A stretch of 64,000 nucleotides of DNA from Thermodesulfobacteriota bacterium (GCA_965232155.1 OZ246948.1:341698-405697), one strand, 5' to 3'; numbered from the stretch's first letter, positions 3,901 to 52,798 are shown. A program made the numbers and translations. Notes: generated by a model from the sequence alone, not told the origin.

Positions 3901-4047
3901 AAGAAGCCGCAGGACTAAGAAAACTAATATAGCCGGAAATCGATATTCCATAAAGACCCTGTTAATAGCACACTCATCTCTCGGGGAAGTCGTCTTGATC
4001 ATTGCGCCAGAACGGATATTAGTAATCACCACCGCGGATGAATCACC

Positions 4048-4989
4048 ATGCTTGAGAAAATCCTTAAAAATTCGAAGAAAGCTATTTTGCTCGGAATAGG
4101 AGGAGGCGGAGATATAGTCGGAACCCTCCCGACGGCAAACCTGCTCGAGATAAACGGAACACAATGCATTCTGGGAGGGCTTAGCTGGGAACGTTTCACG
4201 ATAGACCCCGATCCGGGACCCAGAAAACTTGAAGAATCACGCAACGTCCGCGAGATAAACGACGTGGTCTGGAGATGCAATAAAGACTCCACTACCCGAG
4301 GGGGAGCGAGATTCGCCGAAGCAGGCATGGCCGAAGTTCTGGGAGAGGAGACTCTTCTCGTCGATATCAGTTACGGTCCGGAAAGGGTTTTTGAGGGAAT
4401 AACGGACGCCGCCCAAAAACTCGGCGCAGATCTGGTGGTGGGAATAGACGTCGGGGGAGATGTGCTTGGATTCGGAGATGAAAAAGGACTCATGAGTCCG
4501 CTTGCAGACGCTATAATGACCGCGGCACTTTACAGACAGAGTTTTCAGATGCCCACAGTAATGGGAGTATTCGGCTTCGGAAGCGACGGAGAGCTTTCAA
4601 AAGAGGAGCTTGAAAGATCGTTTGGAATCATAGCACGGAACAACGGAATGCTCGGCAGCTGGGGCATATCGCCAAGGACACTGGAATTAATGGGAAAGGC
4701 GATAAGCGTAATACCCACCGAGGCTAGCAGAGGACCCGTTAAATACGCAAAAGGAGTTTTCAGCACCACTTCAATAAGAAACGGCAGAAGAAAAGTCGAA
4801 CTTGATATAAGGTCCACAGTAACTTTCTACGCAGACCCCCGAGTGGTTTACGAAAAGGTGTCAAGACCCGCACAAGCGGTCTACGGATGCAGAACGATAG
4901 AGGAAGCAAACATAAGGCTTAACGAAGCGGGAATAAGAACGGAACTTGATATTGAAATGGATCTTTATGAAAATCTCGGGAAAAACTAA
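4048..4989 (+). CDS. Conserved hypothetical protein, DUF1152-like (glycine-rich GIGGGGD N-terminal motif)
   Basis: 313 aa ORF. The N-terminus AILLGIGGGGDIVGTLP and a second glycine-rich block VVGIDVGGDVLGFGDEKG resemble the archaeal-type DUF1152 family. No signal peptide. Confidence 0.45.
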   Translation: MLEKILKNSKKAILLGIGGGGDIVGTLPTANLLEINGTQCILGGLSWERFTIDPDPGPRKLEESRNVREINDVVWRCNKDSTTRGGARFAEAGMAEVLGEETLLVDISYGPERVFEGITDAAQKLGADLVVGIDVGGDVLGFGDEKGLMSPLADAIMTAALYRQSFQMPTVMGVFGFGSDGELSKEELERSFGIIARNNGMLGSWGISPRTLELMGKAISVIPTEASRGPVKYAKGVFSTTSIRNGRRKVELDIRSTVTFYADPRVVYEKVSRPAQAVYGCRTIEEANIRLNEAGIRTELDIEMDLYENLGKN

Positions 4990-6553: not shown

Positions 6554-7345
6554 ATGCCATACGCAAACACAAACGGAATAAGTCTTTATTACGAAGAGTG
6601 CGGAGAGGGATATCCGCTAGTGCTCATCCACGGTCTTGGAAGCAGTCTTGAGAGCTGGGAGACACAGGTTCCCATCTACTCGGAGCATTTCCGCGTGATA
6701 GTGCTCGACAACAGGGGCTCGGGCCGCTCCGAGAAACCCGATTATCCCTATACGATGGAACAGATGGCGGATGACGCCGCGGGGCTTTTGGATTTTCTCG
6801 GGATAGAAAAAGCTCACTTCGTTGGAAAATCAATGGGCGGAATGATATGCCAGTGGCTGGGTATAAAATACCCCGAGAGGGTAAACAAGCTCGTCATGGG
6901 ATGCTCCTCAGGGCACAGGGACGAGGTCGGAAACCTGCTTATCAAAACCGTGAGGGACATAGTGGATAAAGCGGGGCCCGGGGCGGGATGGGTTTTTGCG
7001 CTTTTCCTCGGATACCGAAGGAAATATATCGAAGAGAACTACGACTCCTTGATAGGCAGAATCCGGGAAGTTCCCGTTGACCCAGATGCGGCCGCCGGAT
7101 ACAGAAACCAGAGTTACGCGTGCGAGAACCACGACGTATTAGCCCAACTCGGGAAGATCTCCGCGAAAACCCTGGTCATGTATGGAGAGCGGGACATTGT
7201 CACGCCTCCCGAGAGATCGAAAAAGCTCGTGGAACTTATACCGAGCACGGCAGAAAAAGCGTTTGCGGACGTCGGCCACGGATTCTGGAGAGAATGCCAA
7301 GCCGAAGTGGATAAAGCCGTGCTTGATTTTCTCACAAAAGACTAG
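6554..7345 (+). CDS. Alpha/beta fold hydrolase
   Basis: HGLGSS oxyanion region. Nucleophile elbow GKSMGG. C-terminal His in DVGHGF. Confidence 0.75.
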   Translation: MPYANTNGISLYYEECGEGYPLVLIHGLGSSLESWETQVPIYSEHFRVIVLDNRGSGRSEKPDYPYTMEQMADDAAGLLDFLGIEKAHFVGKSMGGMICQWLGIKYPERVNKLVMGCSSGHRDEVGNLLIKTVRDIVDKAGPGAGWVFALFLGYRRKYIEENYDSLIGRIREVPVDPDAAAGYRNQSYACENHDVLAQLGKISAKTLVMYGERDIVTPPERSKKLVELIPSTAEKAFADVGHGFWRECQAEVDKAVLDFLTKD

Positions 7346-9681: not shown

Positions 9682-9861
9682 TCCAGATTTGAATTCTCTT
9701 TTAATTATTTCGATACCCCTTTTTTGTGCACAGGAATTATAACATAACCCTGCGCGAAAAACCCAAGTCATCAGATTTACTGCATAACGGGACTTACAGC
9801 ACGGCATGAAACGCCCGGTCACGACGGACGGACAGGCGCGCCTCACCGCGCAGGCAGCGAA

Positions 9862-10110
9862 TCAGGCAACGGGAATGGAATTTTCGAGCAGAAGAATCGG
9901 TATGTTCTCCCTTACGGGGTAGAGATATTCCCCGCTGCGGCAAATAAGTCCCCCCTCGATTTTCTCAGAAACCCGCTCTCCTGATCTGTCAACGAGAGTT
10001 CCAAGCTCAACAAGTTCGTTAAGCCGCGTAATAATCTCCCGACTGGCTTCTTCAAGAGGTTTCCCGGTCTCAGGACACACGAGAATTTCAAGCAGTTCCT
10101 TGTCAATCAT
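9862..10110 (-). CDS. Trm112/UPF0434 family protein
   Basis: LLEILVCPETGKPLEE and the C-terminal YPVRENIPILL match the Trm112-like family. 82 aa. Confidence 0.6.
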   Translation of the reverse strand: MIDKELLEILVCPETGKPLEEASREIITRLNELVELGTLVDRSGERVSEKIEGGLICRSGEYLYPVRENIPILLLENSIPVA

Positions 10111-10187
10111 TCGGTTTCAGGATTAACGGTTTGCGAAGGCACCCTCCAGGATACAAACGCAGGGGACCCTCGCTCACAAGAAGTCTT

Positions 10188-11480
10188 CTAGGTTCCCAGC
10201 AGCTTCTGGGCCTCCTCATCCGATTTCTCAAAATAAAACTTGGGATCGTTGCGCCCGGCTATAACGCTCTCGTCAATGACGCAGCGCGTCACCCCTTGCA
10301 GTGAAGGCACTTCATAGAAAACCTCAAGCATGATCGATTCTATGATGGCACGAAGCCCCCTGGCCCCGGTATTTCTCAAGACGGCTTCCCTGGCAATAGC
10401 TTTTCTCGCATCTTCCGTTATCTCCAGCTGCACTTTCTCGATTTCCATCATCTTCTCAAACTGCTTCACGATAGCGTTTTTGGGTTCAGTAAGAATTTCG
10501 ACCAGCTGCCCTTCGGTAAGTTCGTTCAGACTGGCGATAATCGGAACCCTACCGACAAATTCGGGAATCAGTCCGAACTGGACGAGATCCTCAGGCTGGA
10601 CCTTGTTAAGAAAGTTGCTTTCGTCCTCAGCAGCCCTGTTTGACAATTTAGCCCCGAAGCCGATGGACTTTTCCCCTATTCTCGCCCGGATAATATCCTC
10701 AAGGCCGCAGAAAGCACCACCGCATATGAAAAGGATGTTCGTGGTGTCCACTTGAGTAAATTCCTGCTGCGGATGCTTCCTTCCCCCCTTGGGAGGAACA
10801 TTTGCCAGAGTCCCTTCCATTATCTTGAGCAACGCCTGCTGCACGCCCTCTCCCGACACATCCCTCGTGATCGAGGGACTGTCGCTTGATTTGCGCGTGA
10901 GCTTGTCTATCTCGTCTATATAGATAATGCCTCCACGGGAAGCTTTTTCGACATCGTAGTTTGCCGCCTGAAGCAGACTCACTATCATGTTTTCCACATC
11001 CTCGCCCACGTAGCCGGCTTCCGTATAGCAGGTAGCGTCCACTATGGTGAAGGGAACGTCGAGAATCTTGGCCAGCGTCTGCGCAAGCAGGGTTTTTCCA
11101 GAACCTGTGGGTCCTATGAGAAGTATGTTGCTTTTCTCCACATCCACTTTGTCGCTTCTTCTCCTGCCGGATTCGTTAAACTGCATCCGCTTGTAGTGAT
11201 TGTAGACGGCAACGGAAAGTACCTTTTTGGCGTTTTCCTGACCTATTATGTATCCGTCAAGAAAGGACTTCATCTCCTGTGGGGTCGGAAAAGATTTCTT
11301 CGGTTTCGGAAAAGCAGTGTCCTTGGTTTTTTCTTCCGCTATGATCTGGTTGCAGAGATCTATGCACTCATCACAGATATAGACCCCATGGCCCGCTATT
11401 AGCTTGTTGATCTCTTCCTGATTCTTCCCGCAGAAAGAACAGTAGTGCTTCGTTTCTTCCCTGCCTTTTTTAGGACTCAT
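10188..11480 (-). CDS. clpX: ATP-dependent Clp protease ATP-binding subunit ClpX
   Basis: N-terminal zinc ribbon CSFCGK...CDEC. Walker A GPTGSGKT. Immediately downstream of clpP. Confidence 0.95.
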
Positions 11481-12082
11481 CCGGTCGCCTCCTCCCTTTC
11501 GGTAATTATGGCATCCACTATACCGTAATCAATAGAATCCTGAGCGGTCATGAAAAAGTCTCTGTCCGTATCGCTCGCTATCTTCTCAAGAGTCTGCCCG
11601 GTGTGCTTCTCAAGTATGGAATTGAGCTGCTTTTTCACCCTGACGATCTCATTTGCGTGTATCTCTATGTCGCTTGCCTGCCCGGAAACGCCGCCGAGCA
11701 CCTGGTGAATCATCACTCTCGAGTGAGGCAGCGCGTACCTTTTGCCCGACGCGCCGCTCGCCAGAAGAACCGCGGCCATGCTGACCGCCTGCCCGATGCA
11801 TATGGTAGAGACTTCAGGCTTCACGTACTGTATGGTGTCGTAGATGGCAAGACCGGAGGTTACGTGCCCTCCGGGGGAGTTTATGTAGAGGTAAATAGGC
11901 GTCTCGGGGTTCTCGGATTCAAGAAAAAGGAGCTGGGCGATGACGACGTTGGCTACCGCGTCGTTTATATCGGAACCTATAAAGACGATCCTGTCCTTAA
12001 GGAGCCTCGAGAAGATATCGTAGCCCTGATCTCCTCTGCTCGTACGCTCAATAACGTAAGGTATGAAATCGGTTATCATCAA
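11477..12082 (-). CDS. clpP: ATP-dependent Clp protease proteolytic subunit ClpP
   Basis: MIHQVLGG and the GQAVSMAA active-site region. 201 aa. Overlaps the clpX start by 4 nt. Confidence 0.95.
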
Positions 12083-12103
12083 AAACCGATTATACTAAGC
12101 GGG

Positions 12104-13411
12104 TTATTCCTTGTCAATCTGCGCGGATTCGGGTTCCACTTCCTCAACCTGGGCCCGCTCGAGAAGAAGGTCCAAGACTCCGCGGGTTCTGATCTGGGAT
12201 TCCAGGTGCTCCCTAGTCCCCGGCTGTTCATAAGCCTTGTGCACCTGATCCGGGGGAAGATTGTATGAAGCGGCAAGGCGGTCTATGTGCTCGTTTAACT
12301 GCTTGCGGGTAACTCTCACGTTCTCCTTCTGGGCGATACGACCGAGAATTATGGATGTTCTGACGCTCTCGGCAGCTTTCTCGGTGAATTTCGGCGCCAC
12401 TTCCTCCCCGATCTCGGGCTCTGCGACTCCGCCTCTCTGCATGTCGGAGAGAAACCTCGTTTTAAGGCTTTCCTCCTCCTTTTCAAGCAGAGACGGAGGA
12501 ACGTCGAACTGGTTTTTCGAGAGAAGGTCGTCGACTATCTGCTCCCTCATGGATGAGAGCTGTTCGTCTTCATGAAGATGCTCAAGCTGCTCCTTTATGG
12601 CCCCTCGCAGCTCAGAAATACCCTCAACGTCAAAATCCTTAGCGAAATCATCGTCCGCCTCGGGCAGAATCCTGTCGTGAATCTCATTCACCTTGACGGT
12701 GAAACTGACGGTTTTCCCGGCAGCCTCGGATATCAGGAAATCTTCCGGGTAGGAAACCGAGAATTGAGCTTCCTCCCCCGCTTTCCTCCCAAGCAGGTTC
12801 TCTTCAAACTCGGGGGCAAACTGTTCTTCGCCCAGCAGGAACTTTACGTTCTGCCTGTTAAGATCGTCTATGGTTTCCCCGTCTTCAAAGGCACCGCTGT
12901 AGTCCACAAAAACGTAATCACCCTCCCTGGCAGGACGGTTCTCCTCGATAAGCCTTGACTGCGCAGACTTTTCCCTGAGTTTCTGCACCTCGGCGTCTAT
13001 ATCCTCTTCGGTTACCTGGCGAACAGTTTTCTTCACTGGAATTGAGCTGTAGTCAGAAAGCTCAAAATCGGGAACAACCTCGAATTCAGCCGAATAAGCG
13101 AACTCCTCTCCGGTTTTCACTTCGCCCATCTCCGTAATGTCTGGGCGCGTTACCGGCAGAAGCGAACGCTCCGCAAGGGCTTCGGACAAGGTTTCCGATA
13201 CAAGGCTAGACGCGGTTTCCTGATCGACCTCCTTTCCGTACATGGACTCGACCACGTGGCGTGGGACCTTTCCCTTTCTAAACCCCTTGACGCTCACTCC
13301 CCCCATAACATCGCGGAACACGGAATTTCTTTTTTCCGCAACCTGATCTGAGGAAAGAGAAACCCTTATCTTTTTTCTGGTGCTGTCAATATGCTCAACA
13401 TCTATCTTCAT
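12104..13411 (-). CDS. tig: Trigger factor
   Basis: 435 aa. N-terminal GFRKGKVP ribosome-binding motif. Canonical tig-clpP-clpX order. Confidence 0.9.
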   Translation of the reverse strand: MKIDVEHIDSTRKKIRVSLSSDQVAEKRNSVFRDVMGGVSVKGFRKGKVPRHVVESMYGKEVDQETASSLVSETLSEALAERSLLPVTRPDITEMGEVKTGEEFAYSAEFEVVPDFELSDYSSIPVKKTVRQVTEEDIDAEVQKLREKSAQSRLIEENRPAREGDYVFVDYSGAFEDGETIDDLNRQNVKFLLGEEQFAPEFEENLLGRKAGEEAQFSVSYPEDFLISEAAGKTVSFTVKVNEIHDRILPEADDDFAKDFDVEGISELRGAIKEQLEHLHEDEQLSSMREQIVDDLLSKNQFDVPPSLLEKEEESLKTRFLSDMQRGGVAEPEIGEEVAPKFTEKAAESVRTSIILGRIAQKENVRVTRKQLNEHIDRLAASYNLPPDQVHKAYEQPGTREHLESQIRTRGVLDLLLERAQVEEVEPESAQIDKE

Positions 13412-19314: not shown

Positions 19315-19396
19315 TGCGAGAGGAGGGAGTCGAACCCTCACACCCTAAGGTACTAGATCCTAAATCTAGCGCGTCTGCCTGTTCCGCCACTCTCGC
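19315..19396 (-). tRNA. tRNA-Leu (anticodon TAG), class II with long variable arm
   Basis: Manually folded. Acceptor stem gcgagag/ctctcgc. Anticodon loop tttagga. 13-nt variable arm. T-loop ttcgact. Confidence 0.75.
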
Positions 19397-19467
19397 CCTT
19401 TACAGTCAAAAACCGGTAAGCACCCGGAATCATATTTCCGGACAGTGCCGTAAGACGCAAAATGAAG

Positions 19468-19541
19468 TGGGCTGCGAGGGATTCGAACCCACGACCGACT
19501 GATTAAGAGTCAGCTGCTCTACCAGACTGAGCTAGCAGCCC
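19468..19541 (-). tRNA. tRNA-Lys (anticodon CTT)
   Basis: Acceptor stem gggctgc/gcagccc. D-arm gctcagtctggtagagc. Anticodon loop ctcttaa. T-loop ttcgaat, with one U-U mismatch in the T-stem. Confidence 0.65.
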
Positions 19542-20609: not shown

Positions 20610-23282
20610 CTAAGGCAGCTTATCTGCGGAGACACCTTCTTCGGGCTTCACTATGGCGATGGCGGCCGCATCGGGATTTATGTATTTCCTGGCTACCCTC
20701 GCTACATCATCTGCAGTCACGGCAAGTATTTTCTCCGGGAACTTTGTGTATTCGTAAGTGCCTATTCCGTAAAGCTCGTCAAACCCAACAGTGGATGCCT
20801 GAGCGGAGTTTCTCTGAAGACCTATCTCGAAGCTTCCGACTATGTAATTTTTCGCTCTTTCAAGCTCCTGCTCCCCGACGCCCTCCAAGACAAGCTGGAG
20901 CTGTTCCTTTATCGCTCCGAGCGCCTCTTTTTCCTTCTGTGGCGCAGTTCCTATATAGACGCCGAAATAACCGCCTTCCATCCCCGGAACGTAAAACGAG
21001 GTAACAGAGTACGCGAGGCTTTTTTTGTCCCGAAGCTCAATGAAAAGTCTCCCTCCCTGTCCGGAAAGCACAGTATTGAGCACCTCGAACGCGTAGCGGT
21101 CCCGGCTTTTAAAACCCGGGGCATGATAACCCGCGATAATGTGGGTCTGGGCCTTCTCCTTTTCAAACTCGACGTTTTCCCTCGCTGCGGAAAGTGCGGA
21201 CTCACGAGGCGGGCGGATATTTTCGAAACTGGTTTTTTTCATGCCGCCGAACAGCTTTTCAAGAACGCCAAGGGTTTTCTCCGCATCAATGTCACCCGCA
21301 ACGGAGATAACCATGTTCTCGGGCCTTATGACTTTCTTGTAGAACTTCCTGACATCGGCCGAGGCAAACCCGGTTACGGTTTCCTCGGTTCCCAGAACGT
21401 TGAACCTGTAGGGATGCTCAAGAAAAAGGGTCCCGAGAAAATTTCTGACGGTCTTTCCCGTGAGGTTGTCCTTCTGCCTCTCCAAGGCGGCCAGAATTTC
21501 CCTTCTCTCTCTCTCCATTTCCTCATCGGAAAAAGAAGGATTAAGTATCACGTCTGAGAAGATATCCATTGCCCCTTCAAAATTCTCGCTTAAGGCTGAA
21601 AGAGTCACCCCGACGCTGTTTTTCCCAGAAAAGCCGTCAACCGTTCCCCCAAGCCCCTCTATCTGAGTGGCTATATCCTCCGCGGAGCGGATTGAGGTGC
21701 CGCGGGTGAACATCCCGGACATGAAGTTCGAAATTCCGTTTGTGTTTTCGTCCTCATACCTGAGACCGCCCAGAAACGCCGCTTGAACAGAGAAAAGGGG
21801 GACGGCGGGGTTTCGCTTCAAAAGAACCCGGATTCCGTTTGAAAGCTCGTATTTCTTAAATTCCGCCTGCGCCCGGGAAACTTTTTTCTTTTCTTTTTTC
21901 CGGGTCGCTTCGGGGAAAACAAGGGCTTTTTTTAAGCCCTGCTCAACTCCCTTGGTTTTGTTTTTCGGAAGCAGCACTCCCGCGGTGAGATTTCTCTGCT
22001 CCAGGTATTTTCTGGCCACGCGCAATATGTCTTCCGGGGTAACATTCCTCATCCTCTCAAGATAGAGGCGTTCGTAGCCATGGTCTCCCGTTTCAAGCTC
22101 AAAGTAACCAAGCTTTCTCGCCTGTCCCTGCATGGTCTCTTTGGCGCGGATGAAATCTCTTTCTATGTTAGTCTTGGCGCGGGCAAGCTCCTCGGCCCCG
22201 ACAAGTTCGTTTTTTATAAGCTCTATCTCCGCTACTATCTCCTTTGAGGCTTTCTCCACTTTACCGGGATCAAAAACTCCGCCCACAATGAAAAGACCGC
22301 TTTCCTTGAGGCTGTAAGCATAGGCGTATATGTCGTCCACGGTGGCGTTCTGCTCCTTTAGTTTTCTGTAGAGCCTAGAGCTTTCCCCGGTGCCGAGTAT
22401 GCCACTTATAACATCAAGAACAGGAGTATCGGCGTGGCTCGCCGAGGGGGTGTGAAAGGCAAAGCTGAAGTAACCCGTGTTTACGTCGCGGCCGATAACA
22501 AAGGTTTTCGTGCGTTTCTGCTCGGGCTCCGGAGGAAGTTCGCACTCGGGAGTTTTTCTTTTCTTTATTTTTCCGAAAGTCCGGGCCACCGCATCTTCTA
22601 TTCCGTCAGGATCAAAATCCCCGACCACAACGAGAATCATGTTGTCCGGGGAATACCACTTTCTGTAGAAATCCAGTATTCCATCTCTGGTGAAGCTCCC
22701 CACGCTCTGCTTGGTCCCTATTATGGGTCTTCCGTAGGGATGAACGCTGTAGGCCGTGGAGAAAAGCTTCTGGGTAAGCACCCTTGAGGGAGAATCCTCT
22801 GCCCTTCTTATTTCTTCCTGGACAACCTCAAGCTCTTTTTTAAGCTCTGTGGGGTCAAAAGTCGAGTTCTCCACGACGTCTGAGAGCAGGTCAAGAGCCA
22901 TTGGCAGAAAGCGCCGCGCGCTTACGATGTAGTAAACCGTCTCGTCAAAGGAGGTAAACGCGTTTATGTCTCCGCCCCCCGCCTCAACCATTCCGGCTAC
23001 CTCGCCGACACGTCTTCTTTCCGTACCCTTGAAAAGCATGTGCTCGTGCACATGCGCGAGACCGTACTCGCCCTCCACCTCGCAAGCGCTTCCGGTCTTC
23101 ACCCACACGTTAACGGCGACAACCGGGGAAGAGTCGTTTCTCTCAAGAAGCACGGTCATGCCGTTAGAAAGAGTGTATTTCGTTACTCCACCGACACCTG
23201 CAAAGGTCTGCGCGTTCAAACTCATAAGACTTGCTCCCGTAATCAGAATGAACAAAAAAAGTAATTTGAAAACCCCTTTCAT
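20610..23282 (-). CDS. Secreted two-module M16 family zinc peptidase (pitrilysin/insulinase-like)
   Basis: Signal peptide MKGVFKLLFLFILITGASLMSLNAQ. Inverted zinc motif HxxEH in GLAHVHEHMLFKGTE. About 890 aa with duplicated M16 halves. Start trimmed from the ORF-track Met to the signal-peptide Met. Confidence 0.8.
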   Translation of the reverse strand: MKGVFKLLFLFILITGASLMSLNAQTFAGVGGVTKYTLSNGMTVLLERNDSSPVVAVNVWVKTGSACEVEGEYGLAHVHEHMLFKGTERRRVGEVAGMVEAGGGDINAFTSFDETVYYIVSARRFLPMALDLLSDVVENSTFDPTELKKELEVVQEEIRRAEDSPSRVLTQKLFSTAYSVHPYGRPIIGTKQSVGSFTRDGILDFYRKWYSPDNMILVVVGDFDPDGIEDAVARTFGKIKKRKTPECELPPEPEQKRTKTFVIGRDVNTGYFSFAFHTPSASHADTPVLDVISGILGTGESSRLYRKLKEQNATVDDIYAYAYSLKESGLFIVGGVFDPGKVEKASKEIVAEIELIKNELVGAEELARAKTNIERDFIRAKETMQGQARKLGYFELETGDHGYERLYLERMRNVTPEDILRVARKYLEQRNLTAGVLLPKNKTKGVEQGLKKALVFPEATRKKEKKKVSRAQAEFKKYELSNGIRVLLKRNPAVPLFSVQAAFLGGLRYEDENTNGISNFMSGMFTRGTSIRSAEDIATQIEGLGGTVDGFSGKNSVGVTLSALSENFEGAMDIFSDVILNPSFSDEEMERERREILAALERQKDNLTGKTVRNFLGTLFLEHPYRFNVLGTEETVTGFASADVRKFYKKVIRPENMVISVAGDIDAEKTLGVLEKLFGGMKKTSFENIRPPRESALSAARENVEFEKEKAQTHIIAGYHAPGFKSRDRYAFEVLNTVLSGQGGRLFIELRDKKSLAYSVTSFYVPGMEGGYFGVYIGTAPQKEKEALGAIKEQLQLVLEGVGEQELERAKNYIVGSFEIGLQRNSAQASTVGFDELYGIGTYEYTKFPEKILAVTADDVARVARKYINPDAAAIAIVKPEEGVSADKLP

Positions 23283-23308
23283 CGACTCCACCCTCCAGAG
23301 GAAAAACC

Positions 23309-24142
23309 CTAGGATTCGTCGCCAGCCAGGGCTTCTAATTCTTTGTCCCGCGATGTCGCCTTCGCGACCAGCTTCCAGGCACACCGTCCAAGCTCAAGGA
23401 TAAAATAGCAGTAAGTTATAACAACCGCGACCACTCCGGGATTGGTAATAAGCGCCGCAATTATTATGGAGCCCGCGACAAGGGTGCTGAAGGGTCCGAA
23501 TCTGGCGATTCGGGGGAACTTCCTGTATGGAACCTCGCTAACCATAACAAGTCCCACGACAGGGACGAAGAAAAGATAAACAGATTTCATAAGAGGCGTG
23601 GCGATGATCTGAAACTCGGAGAGAAGAAGTATCGGAGATAGGATAAGTCCCGCGGCCATAGGACTCGGAAGACCCGTGAACATGCGCTTTTCCTTGGTTG
23701 TAAACTGTATGTTAAAACGCGCAAGTCTAAGCGCTGCGCAGACCACATAGAAAAGCATCGCCATCAGTCCCGGATTTCCGTATTCCGAAAGCCCCCAGAC
23801 GTAAAGAAGAACTGCCGGGGCAACCCCAAACGATACAAGATCGCAGAGTGAGTCATAGGACGCGCCGAAACGGCTCTCCGAGTTAAGAGCTCTAGCTATT
23901 CTGCCGTCAAGCATGTCGACAAGCACCGCCATGCCGATAAATCCTGATGCCCACCAGAAGCGATTGAAAAGCCACTCCTCGGAAACTGCGGCTGAGGCGC
24001 GGTCCCCGTGAATGGAAATCGAAATCACTATGGACGCAAGCCCGAACGCAAGTCCCACAGTTGTGAGCATGTTCGGCAGCAGGGGAATAAGTCTCCCCGG
24101 ACGGGGAGATCTTCTCCTTCTTTTTCTTCTCAAGTTAGCCAC
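23309..24142 (-). CDS. pssA: CDP-diacylglycerol--serine O-phosphatidyltransferase
   Basis: CDP-alcohol phosphatidyltransferase motif DMLDGRIAR...G...D..CD. Multiple TM helices. Confidence 0.8.
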   Translation of the reverse strand: MANLRRKRRRRSPRPGRLIPLLPNMLTTVGLAFGLASIVISISIHGDRASAAVSEEWLFNRFWWASGFIGMAVLVDMLDGRIARALNSESRFGASYDSLCDLVSFGVAPAVLLYVWGLSEYGNPGLMAMLFYVVCAALRLARFNIQFTTKEKRMFTGLPSPMAAGLILSPILLLSEFQIIATPLMKSVYLFFVPVVGLVMVSEVPYRKFPRIARFGPFSTLVAGSIIIAALITNPGVVAVVITYCYFILELGRCAWKLVAKATSRDKELEALAGDES

Positions 24143-33735: not shown

Positions 33736-33809
<74 letters not shown>

Positions 33810-35084: not shown

Positions 35085-35450
35085 CGAGTCGGCCGTGCGG
35101 TCGCCCGCGGCTTGTACGCGGGAGGAAAGTCCGAGCTTCGCAGGGCAGGGCGCTGGTTAACAACCAGGTGTCGCGAGACAACGGAAAGTGCAACAGAAAG
35201 TATACCGCCTGGGCGCCACAAGCGCCCCGGTAAGGGTGAAAAGGTGGTGTAAGAGACCACCGCTCCGAAAGTGATTGAGGAGGCAAGGTAAACCCCGCCT
35301 GAAGAAAGACAAATAGGAAAACACCCGGACAGCTGTCCGGTCAGGGCGGCCCGTCCTGGTTTTCGGGTAGTCGCTTAAGGTATTCTGGCAACAGGTATCT
35401 CAGATGGATGACCGTACTTGACAGAACTCGGCTTACAGGCTGACTCGCTT
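35083..35450 (+). ncRNA. rnpB: RNase P RNA, bacterial type A
   Basis: P1 pairing agcgagtc...gactcgct. Universally conserved GGAGGAAAGTCCGAGC (P4 strand). GGTAAGGGTGAAAAGGTGGTGTAAGAGACCACC. ACAGAACTCGGCTTACAGGCTGACTCGCT at the 3' end, which closely parallels E. coli M1 RNA. Confidence 0.85.
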
Positions 35451-35526
35451 TCTTACCCTATTCCCGCATGTACAGGTTCGATACAGCAAGAATTATCTGG
35501 AAAAGAAAAAATAAAACCGGGTCTGA

Positions 35527-45440: not shown

Positions 45441-45537
45441 TTCGTTAATTATGGACTATATACCCATAATTAACGAAATTTTCATTGCCACATTCTATTT
45501 TTTCGTTTATATTGGAATAATAATCCATAATTAATGA
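45441..45537. repeat. Three copies of the motif CCATAATTAA(C/T)GA; two form a perfect 14-bp inverted repeat with a 9-bp spacer (45441-45477), the third (45524-45537) overlaps the ATPase start codon
   Basis: Read directly from sequence. AT-rich 180-nt intergenic region. Confidence 0.6.
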
Positions 45538-46769
45538 GATTAATCATGTATCAACGTACACTAGCCAGCATTATAAAAGAGGTTAACGACAACTTCCCGG
45601 TTCTTTTGGTGACCGGGCCACGACAGGCAGGTAAAACGACTCTTCTGGAAATGTGCGCGGAGGGAGACAGAAATTACGTGACTCTGGACAATTTAGAAGC
45701 CCGTACCCTAGCTCAAAATGATCCGGGGCTATTCGTGCAAACTCACAAGCCACCACTGATCATTGACGAAGTGCAGTACGCACCTAATTTATTCAGCCAT
45801 ATCAAGACAATTATAGATAAGGAAAAAACTAATGGATTGTTCTGGCTTGCCGGTTCCCAGAAATTTCACCTTATGAAAGGCATTACCGAAAGCCTAGCCG
45901 GCCGGGTCGCAATAATCGATCTTTTAGGGTTGTCCCAAGCGGAAATAGACGAGCGCTGCGACAGGCTGACACCTTTTCTGCCGTCACCCGGTTGGATTGA
46001 CAATGCGAAAAGAACAATTGAAAATCCCAAGACCCTAACCGAGACGTATAAGCGGATTTGGCAGGGGACGTTTCCAAGAATCGTTGAAGCAACAGACTCC
46101 GTACGCAACCTTTTTTACCAATCCTACATTCAGACCTATATCCGACGAGACGTGAAAGATATTCTGTCGATTTCGGATGAAACCTTATTTTACAGTTTCC
46201 TAAGAGCGGTCGCTGCAAGGACAGGACAACTGCTTAATTACGCAGATTTGGGAAGAGACACGGCAATTGACAACAAAACGGCCAAATCATGGCTTTCGGT
46301 TCTCGAAACATCGGGCCTTGTGTACCTGTTAAAACCCTATCATCGCAACGTGACCAAACGTCTTGTGAAATCCCCGAAACTGTATTTTCTTGATACCGGA
46401 CTGTGCACTTATCTTACCAAGTGGCCAACGCCGGATTCTCTTGAGGCCGGAGCCATGTCAGGCGCTATTCTTGAGACATATTTGTTTTCTGAGATTCTCA
46501 AAAGCTACTACCACAACGGAGTCGAACCGTATTTTTATTACTATCGCGATCTTGACCAAAAAGAAGTTGATCTTGTGATTGAAACGGGCGACAGTCTTTA
46601 TCCTGTGGAATTCAAAAAAACTGCGACACCATCTTCCACGGCTTCCAAGCATTTTCACCTGCTTGAAAAATTGGGCAAAAAAGTAGGGCACGGAGCGGTT
46701 TTTTGCTTCGTTGAACGGGACGTCGTGCTGGCAGAAGACGTTACCGCAATTCCTGTCGGCTACCTCTAA
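45534..46769 (+). CDS. AAA+ ATPase, DUF4143-containing (ATP-binding protein). Alternative start at 45546.
   Basis: Walker A VTGPRQAGKTTLLE. Walker B LIIDEVQY. DUF4143-type C-terminal region. Confidence 0.75.
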   Translation: MRLIMYQRTLASIIKEVNDNFPVLLVTGPRQAGKTTLLEMCAEGDRNYVTLDNLEARTLAQNDPGLFVQTHKPPLIIDEVQYAPNLFSHIKTIIDKEKTNGLFWLAGSQKFHLMKGITESLAGRVAIIDLLGLSQAEIDERCDRLTPFLPSPGWIDNAKRTIENPKTLTETYKRIWQGTFPRIVEATDSVRNLFYQSYIQTYIRRDVKDILSISDETLFYSFLRAVAARTGQLLNYADLGRDTAIDNKTAKSWLSVLETSGLVYLLKPYHRNVTKRLVKSPKLYFLDTGLCTYLTKWPTPDSLEAGAMSGAILETYLFSEILKSYYHNGVEPYFYYYRDLDQKEVDLVIETGDSLYPVEFKKTATPSSTASKHFHLLEKLGKKVGHGAVFCFVERDVVLAEDVTAIPVGYL

Positions 46770-48611: not shown

Positions 48612-48872
48612 TCACTTAAGCGAAAGAATAAACTCAGAGAGGCTCTCAACGGTCTCAAGAACCCCAGGGGAAACCTCGGACTCGTCAATCGAGACCCCAA
48701 ATTCCTCTTCAAGCTCCATAATGAATTCGAGCGTCGAAACGGAATCGACGCCAACTCCGAGTTCGATCAGCGACTGCTCAGCAGATATATCTTGGGGTCT
48801 GATGTCGAGATTGAACTTGACGACGACAAGCCGCCTTATTCTCTCCCCAAGAACTTCCTTCCGCTCGGTCAC
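48612..48872 (-). CDS. Acyl carrier protein-like (phosphopantetheine-binding) protein
   Basis: 86 aa. LGVDSVSTLEFIMELEEEFGV has the conserved 4'-PP attachment Ser in the DSV(S/L) motif. Start ATG overlaps the ligase stop (ATGA). Confidence 0.75.
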   Translation of the reverse strand: MTERKEVLGERIRRLVVVKFNLDIRPQDISAEQSLIELGVGVDSVSTLEFIMELEEEFGVSIDESEVSPGVLETVESLSEFILSLK

Positions 48873-50371
48873 TTAAGCTTCTCCCTAAGCACTTTGCCTG
48901 CAGGGCTTCTCGGAAGTGCGGTTACAAATTCCATCTTCGCGGGAATCTTGTAGTCAGAAATTTTTCCCCTGCAGAAGTCGACAATTTCCCGCCTCGTGAG
49001 TCCGTCCGCGACGATAAAGGCCTTTACCTCTTCCCTGCCCCCGGCTCCAGGGGTTCCAATCACCGCGGCTTCCGTTATTTTCCCGTGGGTCATAAGCAGA
49101 TTTTCAACTTCGAACGGGTCAACCTTGTTCCCGGAGATATTGATGAAAAGCTTCTTTCTTCCGCGAATGAAAAGATACCCGTCGCCGTCGAACATTCCGA
49201 GATCCCCGGTGCGGTAAAAACCGTCGACAAAAACCCTCTCGGTCTCTTCCGGAAAATCAACGTAGCCGTCTGTCATTGAAGGGCTTCTTATTATTATCTC
49301 GCCGGTCTGCCCGACCGGAAGTTCGCTCCCGGTTTCAGAAACCACCCTTATAACGACGTTTTCAACCGGCACTCCGACTGAAAGACGCTTTTCCTCTATG
49401 TTCTCCGCGATATTAATTGCCATCACCCCGGTCTCAGAAGAACCGTAGAGCTGGCGGGGGTAAACACCGAAAGCACGGTGGAAAGAAAAAAAGGTTTCCT
49501 CGGGCAGGGGAGCCCCGGCGGAAATAACATGCTTTAGCCGCGGGAAATCATAATCCCCGCGGCTCGCGCTTCGAGCTAGGGTCTCAAGCATGAATGGAAC
49601 GGCGGGAAAGACCGTTATCTGCTCTCCTCGCAGCACGCCGAGAACATCTTTTCTGGTAAACCTCGGAAGGAAATAACAGCACGCCCCGACGCTTACGGCG
49701 CTTACGAAGTTCCCGAGGCCATAGGTATGCGATATCGGAATCGAAAAAAGAATCCTGTCCCCGCTATCCCAGTTTATTGTGGCCGTGTGATTCCGGGCGA
49801 GAGCGATCATGTTGGCGTGGCTTCTCGCGACGCACTTGGGCTTTCCGGTTGAGCCCGTGGAAAAAAGATAGATGGCTTTCTCCGAAGGATGATTTTCGGG
49901 CTGCCCTGCTGGAGCGCCGCCCAGAAAGTTCTCCCGGGTCACGCAAACGGTGGTTATGCCTCCGGAAACGGCGTTCACTTTATGCGCAAGAGATTCGTCC
50001 GTAACGATCAGTGCCGGTTCTGAGAACTCAAGGCAGTATCTTATCTCCTCGGTTCCGCAGGCGCTGTCAATTGGAACGCAGGCAGCTCCAAGTCTTGCTA
50101 TCGAGAAAACGGACACGGCAAGGGAGAGTGAATTGGGAAGGAAAACACACACCTTATCCCCCCGTGACACCCCCAGCTCGGAAAGAAACGATGAAAAGCC
50201 GTCAACAAAGCCGCAGAGCTGCGCGTAACTGCAAGTTTCTCCTTCGTCCCAGACGGCGGCTCCCCGAGGATTCCGCTCCAAGTTCGAATAAAGTATTTCG
50301 CAGTAGTTTCTCATCGCCCCGTCACGGGAAAAGGGGAATTTGTCCGAGCCCAGTGTCCTCAGGAAATCCAA
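48869..50371 (-). CDS. AMP-dependent synthetase/ligase (ANL superfamily adenylating enzyme; acyl-ACP/CoA ligase). Alternative start at 50314.
   Basis: ANL core motifs STGSTGKPKCV, YGSSETG, YRTGDLG and GRKKLFINISGNKVDPFEVE. Confidence 0.85.
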   Translation of the reverse strand: MDFLRTLGSDKFPFSRDGAMRNYCEILYSNLERNPRGAAVWDEGETCSYAQLCGFVDGFSSFLSELGVSRGDKVCVFLPNSLSLAVSVFSIARLGAACVPIDSACGTEEIRYCLEFSEPALIVTDESLAHKVNAVSGGITTVCVTRENFLGGAPAGQPENHPSEKAIYLFSTGSTGKPKCVARSHANMIALARNHTATINWDSGDRILFSIPISHTYGLGNFVSAVSVGACCYFLPRFTRKDVLGVLRGEQITVFPAVPFMLETLARSASRGDYDFPRLKHVISAGAPLPEETFFSFHRAFGVYPRQLYGSSETGVMAINIAENIEEKRLSVGVPVENVVIRVVSETGSELPVGQTGEIIIRSPSMTDGYVDFPEETERVFVDGFYRTGDLGMFDGDGYLFIRGRKKLFINISGNKVDPFEVENLLMTHGKITEAAVIGTPGAGGREEVKAFIVADGLTRREIVDFCRGKISDYKIPAKMEFVTALPRSPAGKVLREKLK

Positions 50372-51368
50372 AGACTATATTCATGTTCTGAACAGCCTGG
50401 CCCGCGGCCCCCTTCATGAGATTGTCAAGAACCGATACGATGACAAGGTGCCCTTCCCGCTCGCAGAAGCCCAAAGAGATACAGTTGGAACCGGAAACAG
50501 ACGCTATCCCAGGAGGCTCGTCGCAGATCCGGACGAAAGCATCATCTCTGTAGAATCCGGAGTAAAGTTCCTTTACCTCATCGAGGGAGATCTCCGAGCG
50601 GAGTTTGAGATACGAAGTGGCCATTATCCCTCTTTTAACCGGAACGCGCGTATTGAAGAAAAGGAGTTTTTTCTTCACACCGCAGAGATCGTAGAACACG
50701 CGAAGAATCTCATGTTTCTGATCATCCCCTCCCGCTCCACGGGCGGATACGTCTTCCTTTACCTCGGTGTAATGACTCTCGGGTCTCGGCGCCCGTCCCG
50801 AAGTCGAAAGAGAAGACTTTATGTCCACTATAATATCGTCTTCCACTTCATACTCTTTAAGAAGAGGCACTACGGCGAGAGAAACGCAGGTAGAGTAGCA
50901 ACCCGCGTTAGCGACTAACGGGGCGTCTTTTATCCTCTCGCGGTTAAGTTCGCTAAGTCCGTAGACTGCCTGCGAAAGAAGCTCGGGAAAGCGCGGCTCC
51001 ACGCCGTGAGCCCGGGAGTAGTCAGCAGGATCAGAGAATCTTAAGTCGGAACTGAGATCGATCACCCTTACGCCTTTTTCAAGGAACTTCCGCACGAAAA
51101 CAGAAGAAGTTCCCGCGGGAAGGCAGGAGAACAGAAGGTCAAGAGGTTCTGAGTCAGGGATCTTCGATACGGGGCTTAGGATAAAATCCGAGTAGCCCAA
51201 GAGATGCGGAAACGCCTCATCCGCCCTCCTGCCCGAGAATTTTTCAGACGTAAGCACCCGCAGATCAACGTTAAGGTGGCGTGCCAGAAGAGAAAGAAGC
51301 TGCTGGCCGACATAACCCGTAACTCCCAGAATTGCTGTCTTGAGTTTCATTTTCTTTTGGGAAACCAA
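50322..51368 (-). CDS. argC: ArgC/LysY-family N-acetyl-gamma-glutamyl-phosphate reductase-like semialdehyde dehydrogenase
   Basis: Rossmann motif ILGVTGYVG. Catalytic-Cys motif ANAGCYSTC. C-terminal LDNLMKGAAGQAVQNMNIVFG, the typical ArgC signature. Translationally coupled to the ligase gene. Confidence 0.75.
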   Translation of the reverse strand: MVSQKKMKLKTAILGVTGYVGQQLLSLLARHLNVDLRVLTSEKFSGRRADEAFPHLLGYSDFILSPVSKIPDSEPLDLLFSCLPAGTSSVFVRKFLEKGVRVIDLSSDLRFSDPADYSRAHGVEPRFPELLSQAVYGLSELNRERIKDAPLVANAGCYSTCVSLAVVPLLKEYEVEDDIIVDIKSSLSTSGRAPRPESHYTEVKEDVSARGAGGDDQKHEILRVFYDLCGVKKKLLFFNTRVPVKRGIMATSYLKLRSEISLDEVKELYSGFYRDDAFVRICDEPPGIASVSGSNCISLGFCEREGHLVIVSVLDNLMKGAAGQAVQNMNIVFGFPEDTGLGQIPLFP

Positions 51369-51481
51369 GCTTTTCTCCGCGAATCCGCCTTGATTAATAT
51401 GGAACTTGTTATCATTAATATAGCTTTAAAAGCGGGAGGGAAAAACCGGGTTCGGCGAAAAAAAGAGGTTGGCTTCCGTTC

Positions 51482-52798
51482 TCAGGCGTTCTGAGCGGTC
51501 GCAGTTCTAAACACCCTGTCGATCCACTGCTCTATGTTGTTGCGCGAGGTCTTTCCTATGAGCTGCCTCACCTCTTGCATGGGAATCACGGCCTTGGCGT
51601 AGGATCTGTGTCCCCCGGCGCTTCCTATTTCATCAAAAAGATCGAAAAGCAGGCGCCCGGCGCTCTTGACAGACCCGCTGTTTCTCACGGACATAACCAA
51701 ATGGGAACCGTTAACAATCCCGAAGGCTACAGACCAGTTGACCCCCCCGACCTTCATACCCATGTCAGCCACCTGAGAAATAAGATGCTCTTTTTCTATC
51801 CTTCCGAGGTTCATGAAAATTATTCCGTCATTTATCCAGTGTTTTGAGAGCGCCTGGCCGTAATGTTTGATTTCTTCTGAATACAGGGTCTTGGACTCTA
51901 TTTTCCTGAGCAGACCCAAATCGGCCTGATTGTAGAGATATGTGAACGCTTCGAGATCATCAAGGTTCGCACCCCTGTTAAGAATCATGGTGTCGGTTTT
52001 TATGCCGTAGAGAAGCGCGGTTGAGAGTTTTGCGGAAATCTCAACCTGGGCAGCCCTGAGAAGCCGGGTCATGATCGTCGCGGTAGCTCCTTCCTCGGAA
52101 CTTATTTCGGTGAATTTCGCGTCGCACTCTGGGGTCCTCGGATGATGGTCAATCACCGAATCGACATCCATAATCTCGCCCCTGAAATAAGAAGGCTGCA
52201 CGTCGACAAGCGCTATGGAATCGAAATTTTTTATATCATCGTGGGAAATCACCTGCAAGTCTATGTCCATAAGTTCCACCATGGCCACGTTCTCGGGTCT
52301 TGAAATTTCCTCCCCGAGGTAACCTATGGTCGCCGTTTTCCTGTTTCTTCTAAGAAGAATACGAAGGGCCATGGCGCTTGCGATCGCATCCGGATCGGGA
52401 TGGTTATGAACGAGTATGAGAACCTTTTTCGCATCGCGGTGAACCTCTCTTATAAGCCTTACGGAAATATCGGATCTCGCGAGCTTCTCCTCAAAAGATA
52501 TCTGGTTGGTGGCGACTTCATCGAATCTCACGTATCTCCCTATATAGCCATCCTTGCGCAGCTCGCCGTCAGCGGAAACAACTATCGGGCTCGTGGGATA
52601 ACTGAAAGCAAGGGATGCCAGAAATTTCTTGGTTGCAAACTCATTGTTTACGACTATAAGCGTAAAGACTCCCTCTTGATTAAACGCGTCATCAGGAGAA
52701 TCAAGCTCTGTTACCTGACCCCTGTTCTTAAAAAGACTCATCGGGAGAAGATCAAATTCTCCGATGAACATATATTGTCTTTCCCCGTTAGTACTCAT
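51482..52798 (-). CDS. DHH/DHHA1 family phosphoesterase (NrnA-like) with N-terminal extension
   Basis: DHH motif region LILVHNHPDPDAIAS. DHHA1 C-terminal GGGH in SAGGHRSYAKA. Confidence 0.7.
   Translation of the reverse strand: MSTNGERQYMFIGEFDLLPMSLFKNRGQVTELDSPDDAFNQEGVFTLIVVNNEFATKKFLASLAFSYPTSPIVVSADGELRKDGYIGRYVRFDEVATNQISFEEKLARSDISVRLIREVHRDAKKVLILVHNHPDPDAIASAMALRILLRRNRKTATIGYLGEEISRPENVAMVELMDIDLQVISHDDIKNFDSIALVDVQPSYFRGEIMDVDSVIDHHPRTPECDAKFTEISSEEGATATIMTRLLRAAQVEISAKLSTALLYGIKTDTMILNRGANLDDLEAFTYLYNQADLGLLRKIESKTLYSEEIKHYGQALSKHWINDGIIFMNLGRIEKEHLISQVADMGMKVGGVNWSVAFGIVNGSHLVMSVRNSGSVKSAGRLLFDLFDEIGSAGGHRSYAKAVIPMQEVRQLIGKTSRNNIEQWIDRVFRTATAQNA

Follow-up and report, generated by a model that had tools for sequence, protein, structure and literature searches.

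A three-gene locus on the minus strand

We analyzed a 64,000-nucleotide stretch of DNA from a Thermodesulfobacteriota bacterium (GCA_965232155.1, OZ246948.1:341698-405697; hereafter the window, with positions counted from its first letter) and, in particular, positions 48,612 to 51,368, where three genes are arranged head-to-tail on the minus strand. These are a gene for an ArgC-like reductase (50322-51350, open reading frame from the first ATG, 342 amino acids (aa)), a gene for an adenylating ligase of the ANL type (48869-50314, from an ATG, 481 aa) and a gene for an acyl carrier protein (ACP; 48612-48872, from a GTG, 86 aa), below jointly denoted the triad. A first-pass annotation, made from the sequence alone, had placed the three genes at these coordinates and had proposed that the ligase loads a carboxylic acid on the ACP for reduction by the ArgC-like enzyme. 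The open reading frames are present as described, and their families are borne out by matches to Pfam, which was used together with the NCBIfam profile library for the assignment of the window proteins.

The start of the ArgC-like gene is more likely ATG 51350 than the alternative TTG 51368, which would lengthen the protein by six residues. The genes had been described as overlapping at both junctions. At the upstream junction, this is not the case: the stop codon of the ArgC-like gene (TGA, 50322-50324) and the ligase start (ATG 50314) stand 7 nucleotides (nt) apart, and an overlap arises only with an upstream ligase TTG at 50371; the ATG is favored because the products of the orthologues are mostly 481 aa long and the gene callers agree. 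At the downstream junction, the ligase stop does overlap the ACP start, the sequence being, however, GTGA (GTG start at 48872) and not ATGA. Six related loci have gaps of between −23 and +49 nt at the two junctions.

A spacer of 131 nt (51351-51481, minus strand) lies upstream of the ArgC-like gene and downstream of a gene for a DHH-family protein. No consensus promoter or terminator was found in the triad region, where the sites returned by the scan were no more numerous than in shuffled sequence, so that the triad may be co-transcribed with trpF-trpB-trpA-DHH. The DHH-family protein itself (51482-52798, minus strand, 438 aa) weakly matches Mn-dependent pyrophosphatase; its gene is located between trpA and the ArgC-like gene in the window and in three of the related loci described below (L001, L005 and L006), not in three others (L002, L004 and L007), and some members of the lineage may transcribe it together with the triad. 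In agreement with the first-pass annotation, no other arg or lys gene is found within the 64 kb window, and the remaining genes are housekeeping ones (pstABC/phoU/phoBR, trpFBA, nadE, birA, gltBD, tyrS, ilvCH, pssA/psd, clpXP and tig).

The ArgC-like protein retains the fold, the nucleophile and the cofactor site

The ArgC-like protein matches the Pfam domains Semialdhyde_dh and Semialdhyde_dhC_1, its best sequence match in the PDB is ArgC (1e-63), and members of its clade are named ordinary ArgC in public sources. An AlphaFold2 model (pLDDT 83, pTM 0.86), built on a shallow alignment of 13 sequences, was compared with known structures using Foldseek, whereby the template modeling (TM) score was 0.89 to 1XYG and 2CVO and 0.86 to 8AFU; in the overall ranking, ArgC (TM 0.86-0.89) is followed by LysY (0.85) and then by ASADH and the archaeal malonyl-CoA reductase (about 0.7). 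Residues 181-207, i.e. the substrate-channel loop, were modeled with pLDDT below 50, which could reflect either the shallow alignment or real mobility of the loop. Membership in the ASADH branch was considered and rejected, given that the match to 4DPK (E-value 4e-7, TM 0.71) is far below the matches to ArgC (TM 0.89).

Cys151 (codon 50898-50900, minus strand), the nucleophile of the superfamily, located in the GCYST motif within ANAGCYST, is kept in 100% of the triad clade. Also retained are Arg104, the equivalent of Arg114 of Mycobacterium tuberculosis ArgC, Arg186, Arg240, the GxxGxxG motif and the nicotinamide-side motif DNLxKGAxGQAxQNMN; Cys151 and the two motifs show little or no variation in sequences down to about 40% identity. 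The window protein itself has G9-x-x-G12-x-x-G15 and the C-terminal DNLMKGAAGQAVQNMN.

Loss of the catalytic histidine and of pocket residues

In M. tuberculosis ArgC, Cys158 is activated by His219, and the phosphate is held by Arg114 together with His217 and His219 (PMC12041015). In the enzyme of Denitrovibrio, HRH is the binding site of phosphate and carbonyl, the N-acetylglutamyl pocket is shaped by S178, G182, A183, Y203 and L233, and substitutions at S178, G182 and L233 cut the activity with N-acetylglutamyl phosphate about 1000-fold (PMC10170137). The residues lost in the triad clade are those assigned to these functions, namely, Cys activation, phosphate and carbonyl binding and the N-acetylglutamyl pocket (PMC12041015, PMC8220418, PMC10170137). 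Across 126 triad-type and 59 canonical ArgC sequences aligned together (positions in the window numbering), position 211 is His in all canonical sequences (59/59, 100%) and Gln in all triad-type sequences (126/126, 100%). The adjacent position 210, Arg in 88% of the canonical sequences, is never Arg among the residues listed for the triad clade and is Asp in 56%. Position 204, corresponding to Tyr211 of M. tuberculosis ArgC and Tyr203 of Denitrovibrio ArgC, is Tyr in 100% of the canonical sequences and variable in the triad clade, with Arg in the window; position 235, corresponding to Leu233 of Denitrovibrio ArgC, is Leu in 92% of the canonical sequences and Arg in 67% of the triad clade, the window protein included. 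The GAG motif, near-invariant in canonical ArgC (G 100%, A 98%), is relaxed in the triad clade and reads T183-S184-G185 in the window; terrestrial members of the clade keep the motif (SGAGR), and some of them also keep the Tyr.

At the DNA level, D209-D210-Q211-K212 (50715-50726, minus strand; D-D-Q codons 50718-50726) replaces H-R-H-(T/L), with the Gln211 codon (50718-50720) standing at the position of the catalytic base, i.e. His219 of M. tuberculosis ArgC. The second altered segment, S179-S-L-S-T-S-G-R186 (50793-50816, minus strand), replaces S-G-V-S-G-A-G-R in the GAG loop, at the beginning of the low-confidence loop 181-207. In an alignment with the 120 best database matches, the canonical motif (K/R)AY-x(3,4)-H-R-H-(T/L)-(P/S)-E-I contrasts with x-x-Q-(K/R/G/E/T)-x-E-(I/M/V) of the triad type, the window protein having G-D-D-Q-K-H-E-I. 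The statement of the first-pass annotation that the protein carries the full ArgC/LysY signature is wrong: the Cys of GCYST and DNLMKGAAGQAVQNMN are present, and HRH, GAG and the conserved Tyr are replaced by D-D-Q, T-S-G and Arg, respectively.

A profile of the clade was then searched against 1.84 billion cluster representatives, and the best 150 were classified by motif. About 10 of these are Gln-type, nearly all of them top-ranked, and the rest have H-x-H except for a few with unparsed motifs, which implies that the clade is small and that the His is otherwise nearly universal. Cys76 (in FSCLP) was tried as an additional marker of the clade and discarded because it is also found in a number of canonical representatives. 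Judged by these alignments, the ArgC-like reductase is a distinct paralogous clade that has lost HRH and in which the N-acetylglutamyl pocket is relaxed.

A canonical argC in a genome that carries the triad

One genome of the lineage (locus L070, OZ244991.1, a 2.67 Mb chromosome) encodes a canonical argC 8.5 kb upstream of the triad, which itself has the flanks typical of the lineage. The locus starts inside this gene (L070:3-467), so that the C-terminal 154 residues are visible; these read AYKIGEHRHTPEIE, and the motif HRHTPEIE is intact. Over the same 154-residue region, the score against TIGR01850 is 198 bits for the canonical protein of L070, 155 for the triad copy of L070 and 131 for the window protein, and the two L070 paralogs are 45% identical. 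In this genome, the triad gene is therefore clearly a paralog. The Gln-type clade contains the triad copy of L070 as well as the window protein, and the most economical interpretation is that the function had diverged before these two separated. A metagenome scan with the canonical fragment of L070 returned 80 loci, none of which has the triad in its flanks; three of the loci, L089, L094 and L095, share the gene order of L070 downstream of the canonical argC, with no demonstrable tie to triad genomes. The literature on Dadabacteria metabolism is silent on arginine genes (PMC8115339 with its supplements, PMC10978986).

The ligase and the carrier protein

The ligase matches AMP-binding (PF00501, 1.4e-72) and AMP-binding_C (PF13193) and contains the complete set of ANL core motifs, namely, STGSTGKPK, PISHTYGLGN, YGSSETG, YRTGDLG, GRKKLFINISGNKV and the Lys of AGKV; in the alignment of its homologues, STGSTGxPK, SHTY, YGSxETG, TGD, GRKK and the C-terminal GK are invariant. 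Its score is below the cutoff of every specific ligase model of NCBIfam, and its best matches in the PDB are scattered among the LgrA A-domain, FadD13 and the oxalate-, feruloyl- and malonyl-CoA ligases. In amino-acid-activating domains, an Asp in the A4 motif binds the alpha-amino group. By motif reading, the A4 motif of the ligase, PISHTYG, is without this Asp, and activation of an amino acid at the alpha-carboxyl was rejected on this ground.

The carrier matches PP-binding (PF00550, 3.3e-9), and its best match in the PDB is a peptidyl carrier protein. It scores under all AcpP cutoffs of NCBIfam, indicative of a dedicated carrier distinct from the ACP of fatty acid synthesis. The protein is acidic, with 19 Asp and Glu against 8 Lys and Arg and a net charge of about −11, and the predicted phosphopantetheine site, Ser44 of the DSV motif in GVDSVSTLE (codon 48741-48743, minus strand), is invariant in seven aligned orthologues.

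Conservation of the triad across the Dadabacteria lineage

The database matches of the ligase fall into a first tier with 66-93% identity, including two that are named Candidatus Dadabacteria by NCBI, and a second tier with 47-51% identity, named Dadabacteria, Thermodesulfobacteriota or Deltaproteobacteria. In eight contigs from metagenomes or metagenome-assembled genomes (MAGs; L001-L008), the genes for the ArgC-like protein, the ligase and the ACP are found in the same order at every locus. A scan with the ligase alignment across one genome per species (185,579 species) returned 80 loci, of which 66 (L009-L074, ligase 41-93% identical) belong to the Dadabacteria lineage, many of them in complete chromosomes of 1.5-3.1 Mb. 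The ArgC-like gene is immediately upstream of the ligase in all lineage loci with upstream sequence on the contig, and the ACP gene is immediately downstream in all 66 except L073. Gene-neighborhood conservation, which the first-pass annotation had named as a check on its proposal, extends to about 64 of the 66 species genomes, and streamlined marine and sponge-associated genomes (marine ones of 1.5-2.4 Mb) are among those that carry the triad.

The flanks of L001-L008 are also partly conserved, with trpFBA-DHH upstream and MerR-like, DUF8083 and sigma-70 genes downstream; the spacing within the triad stays operon-tight although the other neighbors vary. In the non-marine loci L002 and L004-L008, the ACP gene is always followed by genes for a divergent protein of 235-246 aa with a faint MerR_1 match and for a DUF8083 protein (e.g. 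L002:9747-11329). This pair is missing in the window; there, nadE and the ACP gene are convergent, with 8 nt separating their stop codons.

The most divergent locus of the triad type is L073 (8927-11488), with a ligase 41% identical to that of the window and high G+C; here, two insertions are present around the Gln motif of the ArgC-like protein, and the ligase gene is followed by a gene for a 439-aa zinc-ribbon protein, without an ACP gene. In another MAG, L086 (8959-11465), all three genes are present, with the ArgC-like gene and the ligase gene split into several frames, as a result of either misassembly or decay of this copy of the module. Seven MAGs labeled "uncultured Spirochaetia bacterium" (L023, L041, L043, L049, L060, L066 and L073) and one labeled "Ignavibacteriales bacterium" (L053) also carry a triad of the Dadabacteria type, the ligase of L023 being 87% identical to that of the window; these labels are probably wrong.

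Remote homologues of the ligase

Among the loci of the scan, the 14 with the most remote ligases (36-40% identity) are without an ArgC-like gene and carry the labels Nitrospirota/Nitrospiria, Scalinduaceae, Thiogranum, Trueperaceae, Hydrogenophilales, delta proteobacteria, Acidobacteriota/Bryobacterales and Solirubrobacterales. In 11 of the 14, an ACP-like gene is beside or near the ligase gene, mostly just upstream. Six of these loci were annotated, and in them the ligase and the ACP are combined with a chorismate pyruvate-lyase (L076 and L077) or with an LpxL-like acyltransferase (L080, L081, L085 and L087). Because these remote homologues pair with an ACP and with either a consumer of acyl-ACP or a supplier of substrate, the ligase family appears to fit a group of stand-alone acid:ACP ligases that hand their product to a neighboring enzyme; in the window and in at least 64 lineage genomes, likewise, the ligase gene adjoins its own small ACP gene and a gene for a putative user of acyl-ACP, the neighbor in this role being the ArgC-like protein.

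The annotated remote cassettes are of two kinds. In L076 (8942-11461, Scalinduaceae MAG) and L077 (9126-11461, Thiogranum MAG), the ligase homologue and the ACP are accompanied by a chorismate pyruvate-lyase similar to Rv2949c, suggestive of hydroxybenzoate loading; L076 has, in addition, a class-II DAHP synthase gene upstream and methyltransferase, O-antigen ligase-like and asparagine synthase genes in the neighborhood. The cassette resembles a pathway in which 4-hydroxybenzoyl-ACP would be made for a surface glycoconjugate. In L080, L081, L085 and L087 (approximately 9700-12470; delta-proteobacterial and Bryobacterales MAGs), the cassette consists of an ACP, the ligase and an LpxL/HtrB-like acyltransferase, and in L085 it adjoins glycosyltransferase and methyltransferase genes.

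Other features of the window

A 429-aa protein (2875-4164, minus strand) weakly matches the BtrH-related acyltransferase DarH (102 bits, cutoff 300), and its gene adjoins a GspC-like gene. A nearby alpha/beta hydrolase (6554-7345, plus strand) weakly matches PcaD and OlsI, an ornithine-lipid acyltransferase. A 924-aa protein (20610-23384, minus strand) resembles a fusion of two halves of the M16 peptidase type, which match the models of YfmH and YfmF (associated with the 5-aminopentanol modification of EF-P) below the cutoffs. Between a gene for a protein similar to CPBP-type membrane proteases and nadE, the window encodes a predicted ATPase of 411 aa (45534-46769, plus strand) with no match in NCBIfam; in L001, the sole annotated locus covering this stretch, a TonB-dependent receptor gene, a DprA-like gene and a DEAD-box helicase gene occupy the position. 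The class A RNase P RNA (303 bits) and the tRNAs Leu-TAG, Lys-CTT and Met-CAT (35085-35451, plus strand; 19315-19541, minus strand; 33736-33809, plus strand) are ordinary.

A candidate split carboxylic acid reductase

On sequence grounds, the interpretation that we favor, with modest confidence, is that the triad is a split, carrier-protein-dependent carboxylic acid reductase, in which the ligase loads an acid on the ACP and the ArgC-fold enzyme makes the aldehyde; in other words, the triad is probably a new kind of acid-to-aldehyde reductase distributed over separate proteins and not an arginine gene cluster. The ligase would adenylate a carboxylic acid other than an alpha-amino acid at its alpha-carboxyl, conceivably one that is still anionic, and would pass the acyl group on to the ACP, at the thiol of the phosphopantetheine attached to Ser44. 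The acyl-S-ACP would then dock on the ArgC-fold enzyme, Cys151 would accept the acyl group by transthioesterification, and NADPH would reduce the acyl-enzyme to a thiohemiacetal, from which the aldehyde would leave. All of the chemistry in this scheme is inferred, as are its direction and the nature of the substrate. Under the proposal, the departure of a thiol instead of a phosphate would account for the replacement of HRH (D-D-Q-K in the window), and the N-acetylglutamyl pocket would have been remodeled. More speculatively, the retained arginines hint at a substrate with a remaining anionic group, and the clade-specific basic residues Lys37, Lys/Arg88, Lys212 and Arg235 could offer the acidic ACP a surface on which to dock.

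This mechanism coincides with the preferred proposal of the first-pass annotation, which is partly supported by the present analysis: it is strengthened because the triad occurs lineage-wide, because its reductase belongs to a clade without HRH, because L070 has a canonical argC and because the remote ligases pair with ACPs. Several observations weigh against it. The ArgC-like protein passes the NCBIfam argC equivalog model TIGR01850 with 317.3 bits (cutoff 233.6), and Arg104, a phosphate binder in true ArgC, is still present in the clade. The weakest point of the mechanism is the absent base for the activation of the Cys: no conserved substitute base for Cys151 was identified, with Lys212 conserved in only 79% of the clade. 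Furthermore, the conserved gene order is confined to a single lineage, so that the co-occurrence of the three genes amounts to about one evolutionary event; no conserved aldehyde-using enzyme, such as an aminotransferase or an alcohol dehydrogenase, is encoded beside the triad at L001-L008; and the coexistence of the triad with a canonical argC was observed in one genome, over the C-terminal 154 residues of the latter.

Comparison with known systems

The ArgC-like protein shares with ArgC the fold and 30-38% sequence identity, as well as the Cys nucleophile, the NADPH motifs, the equivalent of Arg114 of M. tuberculosis ArgC and the C-terminal signature. It differs in having D-D-Q-K for HRH and altered Tyr, Leu and GAG, and in being linked to a ligase and an ACP instead of arg genes. 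The LysY/LysW (ArgW) systems of Thermus and archaea (PDB 5EIO) are similar in that an ArgC-fold reductase acts on a substrate held by a small acidic carrier. However, LysW is a zinc-ribbon protein that holds the amino group of the substrate via a C-terminal Glu, whereas the carrier of the triad is a phosphopantetheinyl ACP, and LysY reduces an acyl phosphate made by LysZ and keeps His209 (PMC12041015), whereas in the triad activation is assigned to the ANL ligase and the His is lost. A LysW-type system was accordingly rejected for the triad: the carrier (PF00550) and the ligase (PF00501) are of the wrong families, lysX, lysZ, lysJ and lysK are missing from the window, and the reductase lacks the His.

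The carboxylic acid reductases (CARs), Lys2/alpha-aminoadipate reductase and myxobacterial ElbD resemble the route proposed here, proceeding from adenylation through a phosphopantetheine thioester to NADPH-dependent release of the aldehyde. In these A-T-R enzymes, all the parts belong to a single polypeptide and the R domain is of the short-chain dehydrogenase type, without a Cys acyl-enzyme, whereas the triad consists of three separate proteins, with a Cys nucleophile in a reductase of the ArgC/ASADH/GAPDH fold. Thus, the triad includes the ANL core motifs and the carrier Ser of the A-T-R organization and is without its short-chain dehydrogenase-type terminal reductase and its single chain. 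In LuxC-LuxE and in the cyanobacterial acyl-ACP reductase, ATP-dependent activation of the acyl group is combined with a Cys-dependent NADPH reductase that produces the aldehyde from an acyl thioester. However, LuxC is a member of the aldehyde dehydrogenase superfamily, the cyanobacterial enzyme comes from a different family again, and neither has the ArgC fold or a dedicated ACP gene in its operon.

Within the superfamily, there are precedents for both unusual features of the proposed reaction, given that LysY acts on a substrate bound to a carrier protein and that a thioester is the substrate of the archaeal ASADH-like malonyl-CoA reductase (PMC12041015). The archaeal malonyl-CoA/succinyl-CoA reductase (4DPK/4DPL) has changed its type of substrate, with a thioester in place of an acyl phosphate, and has retained the Cys mechanism (PMC12041015). 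It differs from the triad protein in belonging to the ASADH branch, in using a CoA substrate and in keeping the activating His, whereas the triad protein is in the ArgC branch, would use a carrier protein and has lost the His. We found no published description of the combination of an ArgC-like protein, a ligase and an ACP in the literature accessible to our search. The logic of adenylate, carrier thioester and aldehyde is already known, and the new element would be the ArgC-fold reductase in this role.

Alternative explanations

The alternative closest to the proposed mechanism, in effect a special case of it with a defined substrate, is a variant of arginine, ornithine or proline synthesis in which the ligase and the ACP replace ArgB or ProB, and the gamma-carboxyl of N-acetylglutamate or glutamate is converted, as an ACP thioester, to the semialdehyde. 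The loss of HRH along with the retention of the Cys, the NADPH site and the three Arg would suit such a thioester substrate that is still anionic; the terrestrial members that keep SGAGR, and in some cases the Tyr, point in the same direction, as do the universality of the module in the lineage, streamlined marine genomes included, which is expected of core biosynthesis, and the absence of argB and proB from the 64 kb window. Nevertheless, we consider this variant unlikely: L070 also has a canonical, HRH-bearing argC, so that the triad is dispensable for arginine there, the alteration of all three pocket elements (GAG, Tyr204 and Leu235) in the clade of the window argues against an N-acetylglutamyl substrate, and activation via AMP is dearer than a kinase reaction. 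An explanation to which we give a similarly low probability holds that the ArgC-like protein is not an acyl-ACP reductase at all, and instead works in the reverse direction (from an aldehyde via the acyl-enzyme to acyl-ACP), has an acyl-transfer or thioesterase-like activity, or is a non-catalytic partner of the ACP. In its favor, the catalytic His is gone in every member with no conserved substitute base found, the substrate-channel loop is modeled at low confidence, and none of L001-L008 has a conserved aldehyde-consuming enzyme nearby. However, the strict conservation of Cys151, GxxGxxG and DNLxKGAxGQAxQNMN implies selection for redox catalysis, and because the ligase already makes acyl-ACP, an oxidative route to the same product would be redundant.

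The first-pass annotation had itself offered an alternative, namely that the gene is the only argC of the organism and that its linkage to the ligase and the ACP is coincidental. In this case, the adjacency would be an inherited gene order without functional meaning, for which one could invoke the equivalog score above the cutoff, the conservation of the flanking gene order in the lineage and the absence of a second argC from the window. This is the least likely of the rival explanations and, in our judgment, quite improbable. HRH is gone, whereas almost all other readable top cluster representatives have H-x-H; the altered pocket residues are ones whose mutation abolishes the activity with the native substrate (PMC10170137); L070 carries a canonical argC besides the triad; and the operon-tight spacing to the ligase and the ACP persists while other neighbors change.

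Implications

In its full form, the proposal would make the ArgC-like protein the first ArgC-fold enzyme fed by a phosphopantetheinyl carrier, within a three-protein carboxylic acid reductase that defines the lineage, is probably essential and supplies the aldehyde of an unrecognized pathway; we consider this extended claim about evenly balanced between being right and being wrong. In a sharper version, the triad would swap the kinase-dependent step of the synthesis of a glutamate-family amino acid for a thioester route. If the proposal is correct, a third, independent reductase fold would be added to the adenylate-thioester-aldehyde logic of the CARs, Lys2 and LuxCE, and the triad protein would represent a natural ArgC scaffold retuned from acyl phosphate to thioester, in parallel to the switch from ASADH to malonyl-CoA reductase. 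Such a scaffold would also be of interest for enzyme engineering, ArgC having previously been engineered into a formyl phosphate reductase. For the organisms themselves, it would mean that all examined members of a lineage that is uncultured and found worldwide keep an aldehyde-dependent pathway. Already at present, metabolic reconstructions of Dadabacteria may credit these bacteria with an arginine step that the triad gene probably does not perform.

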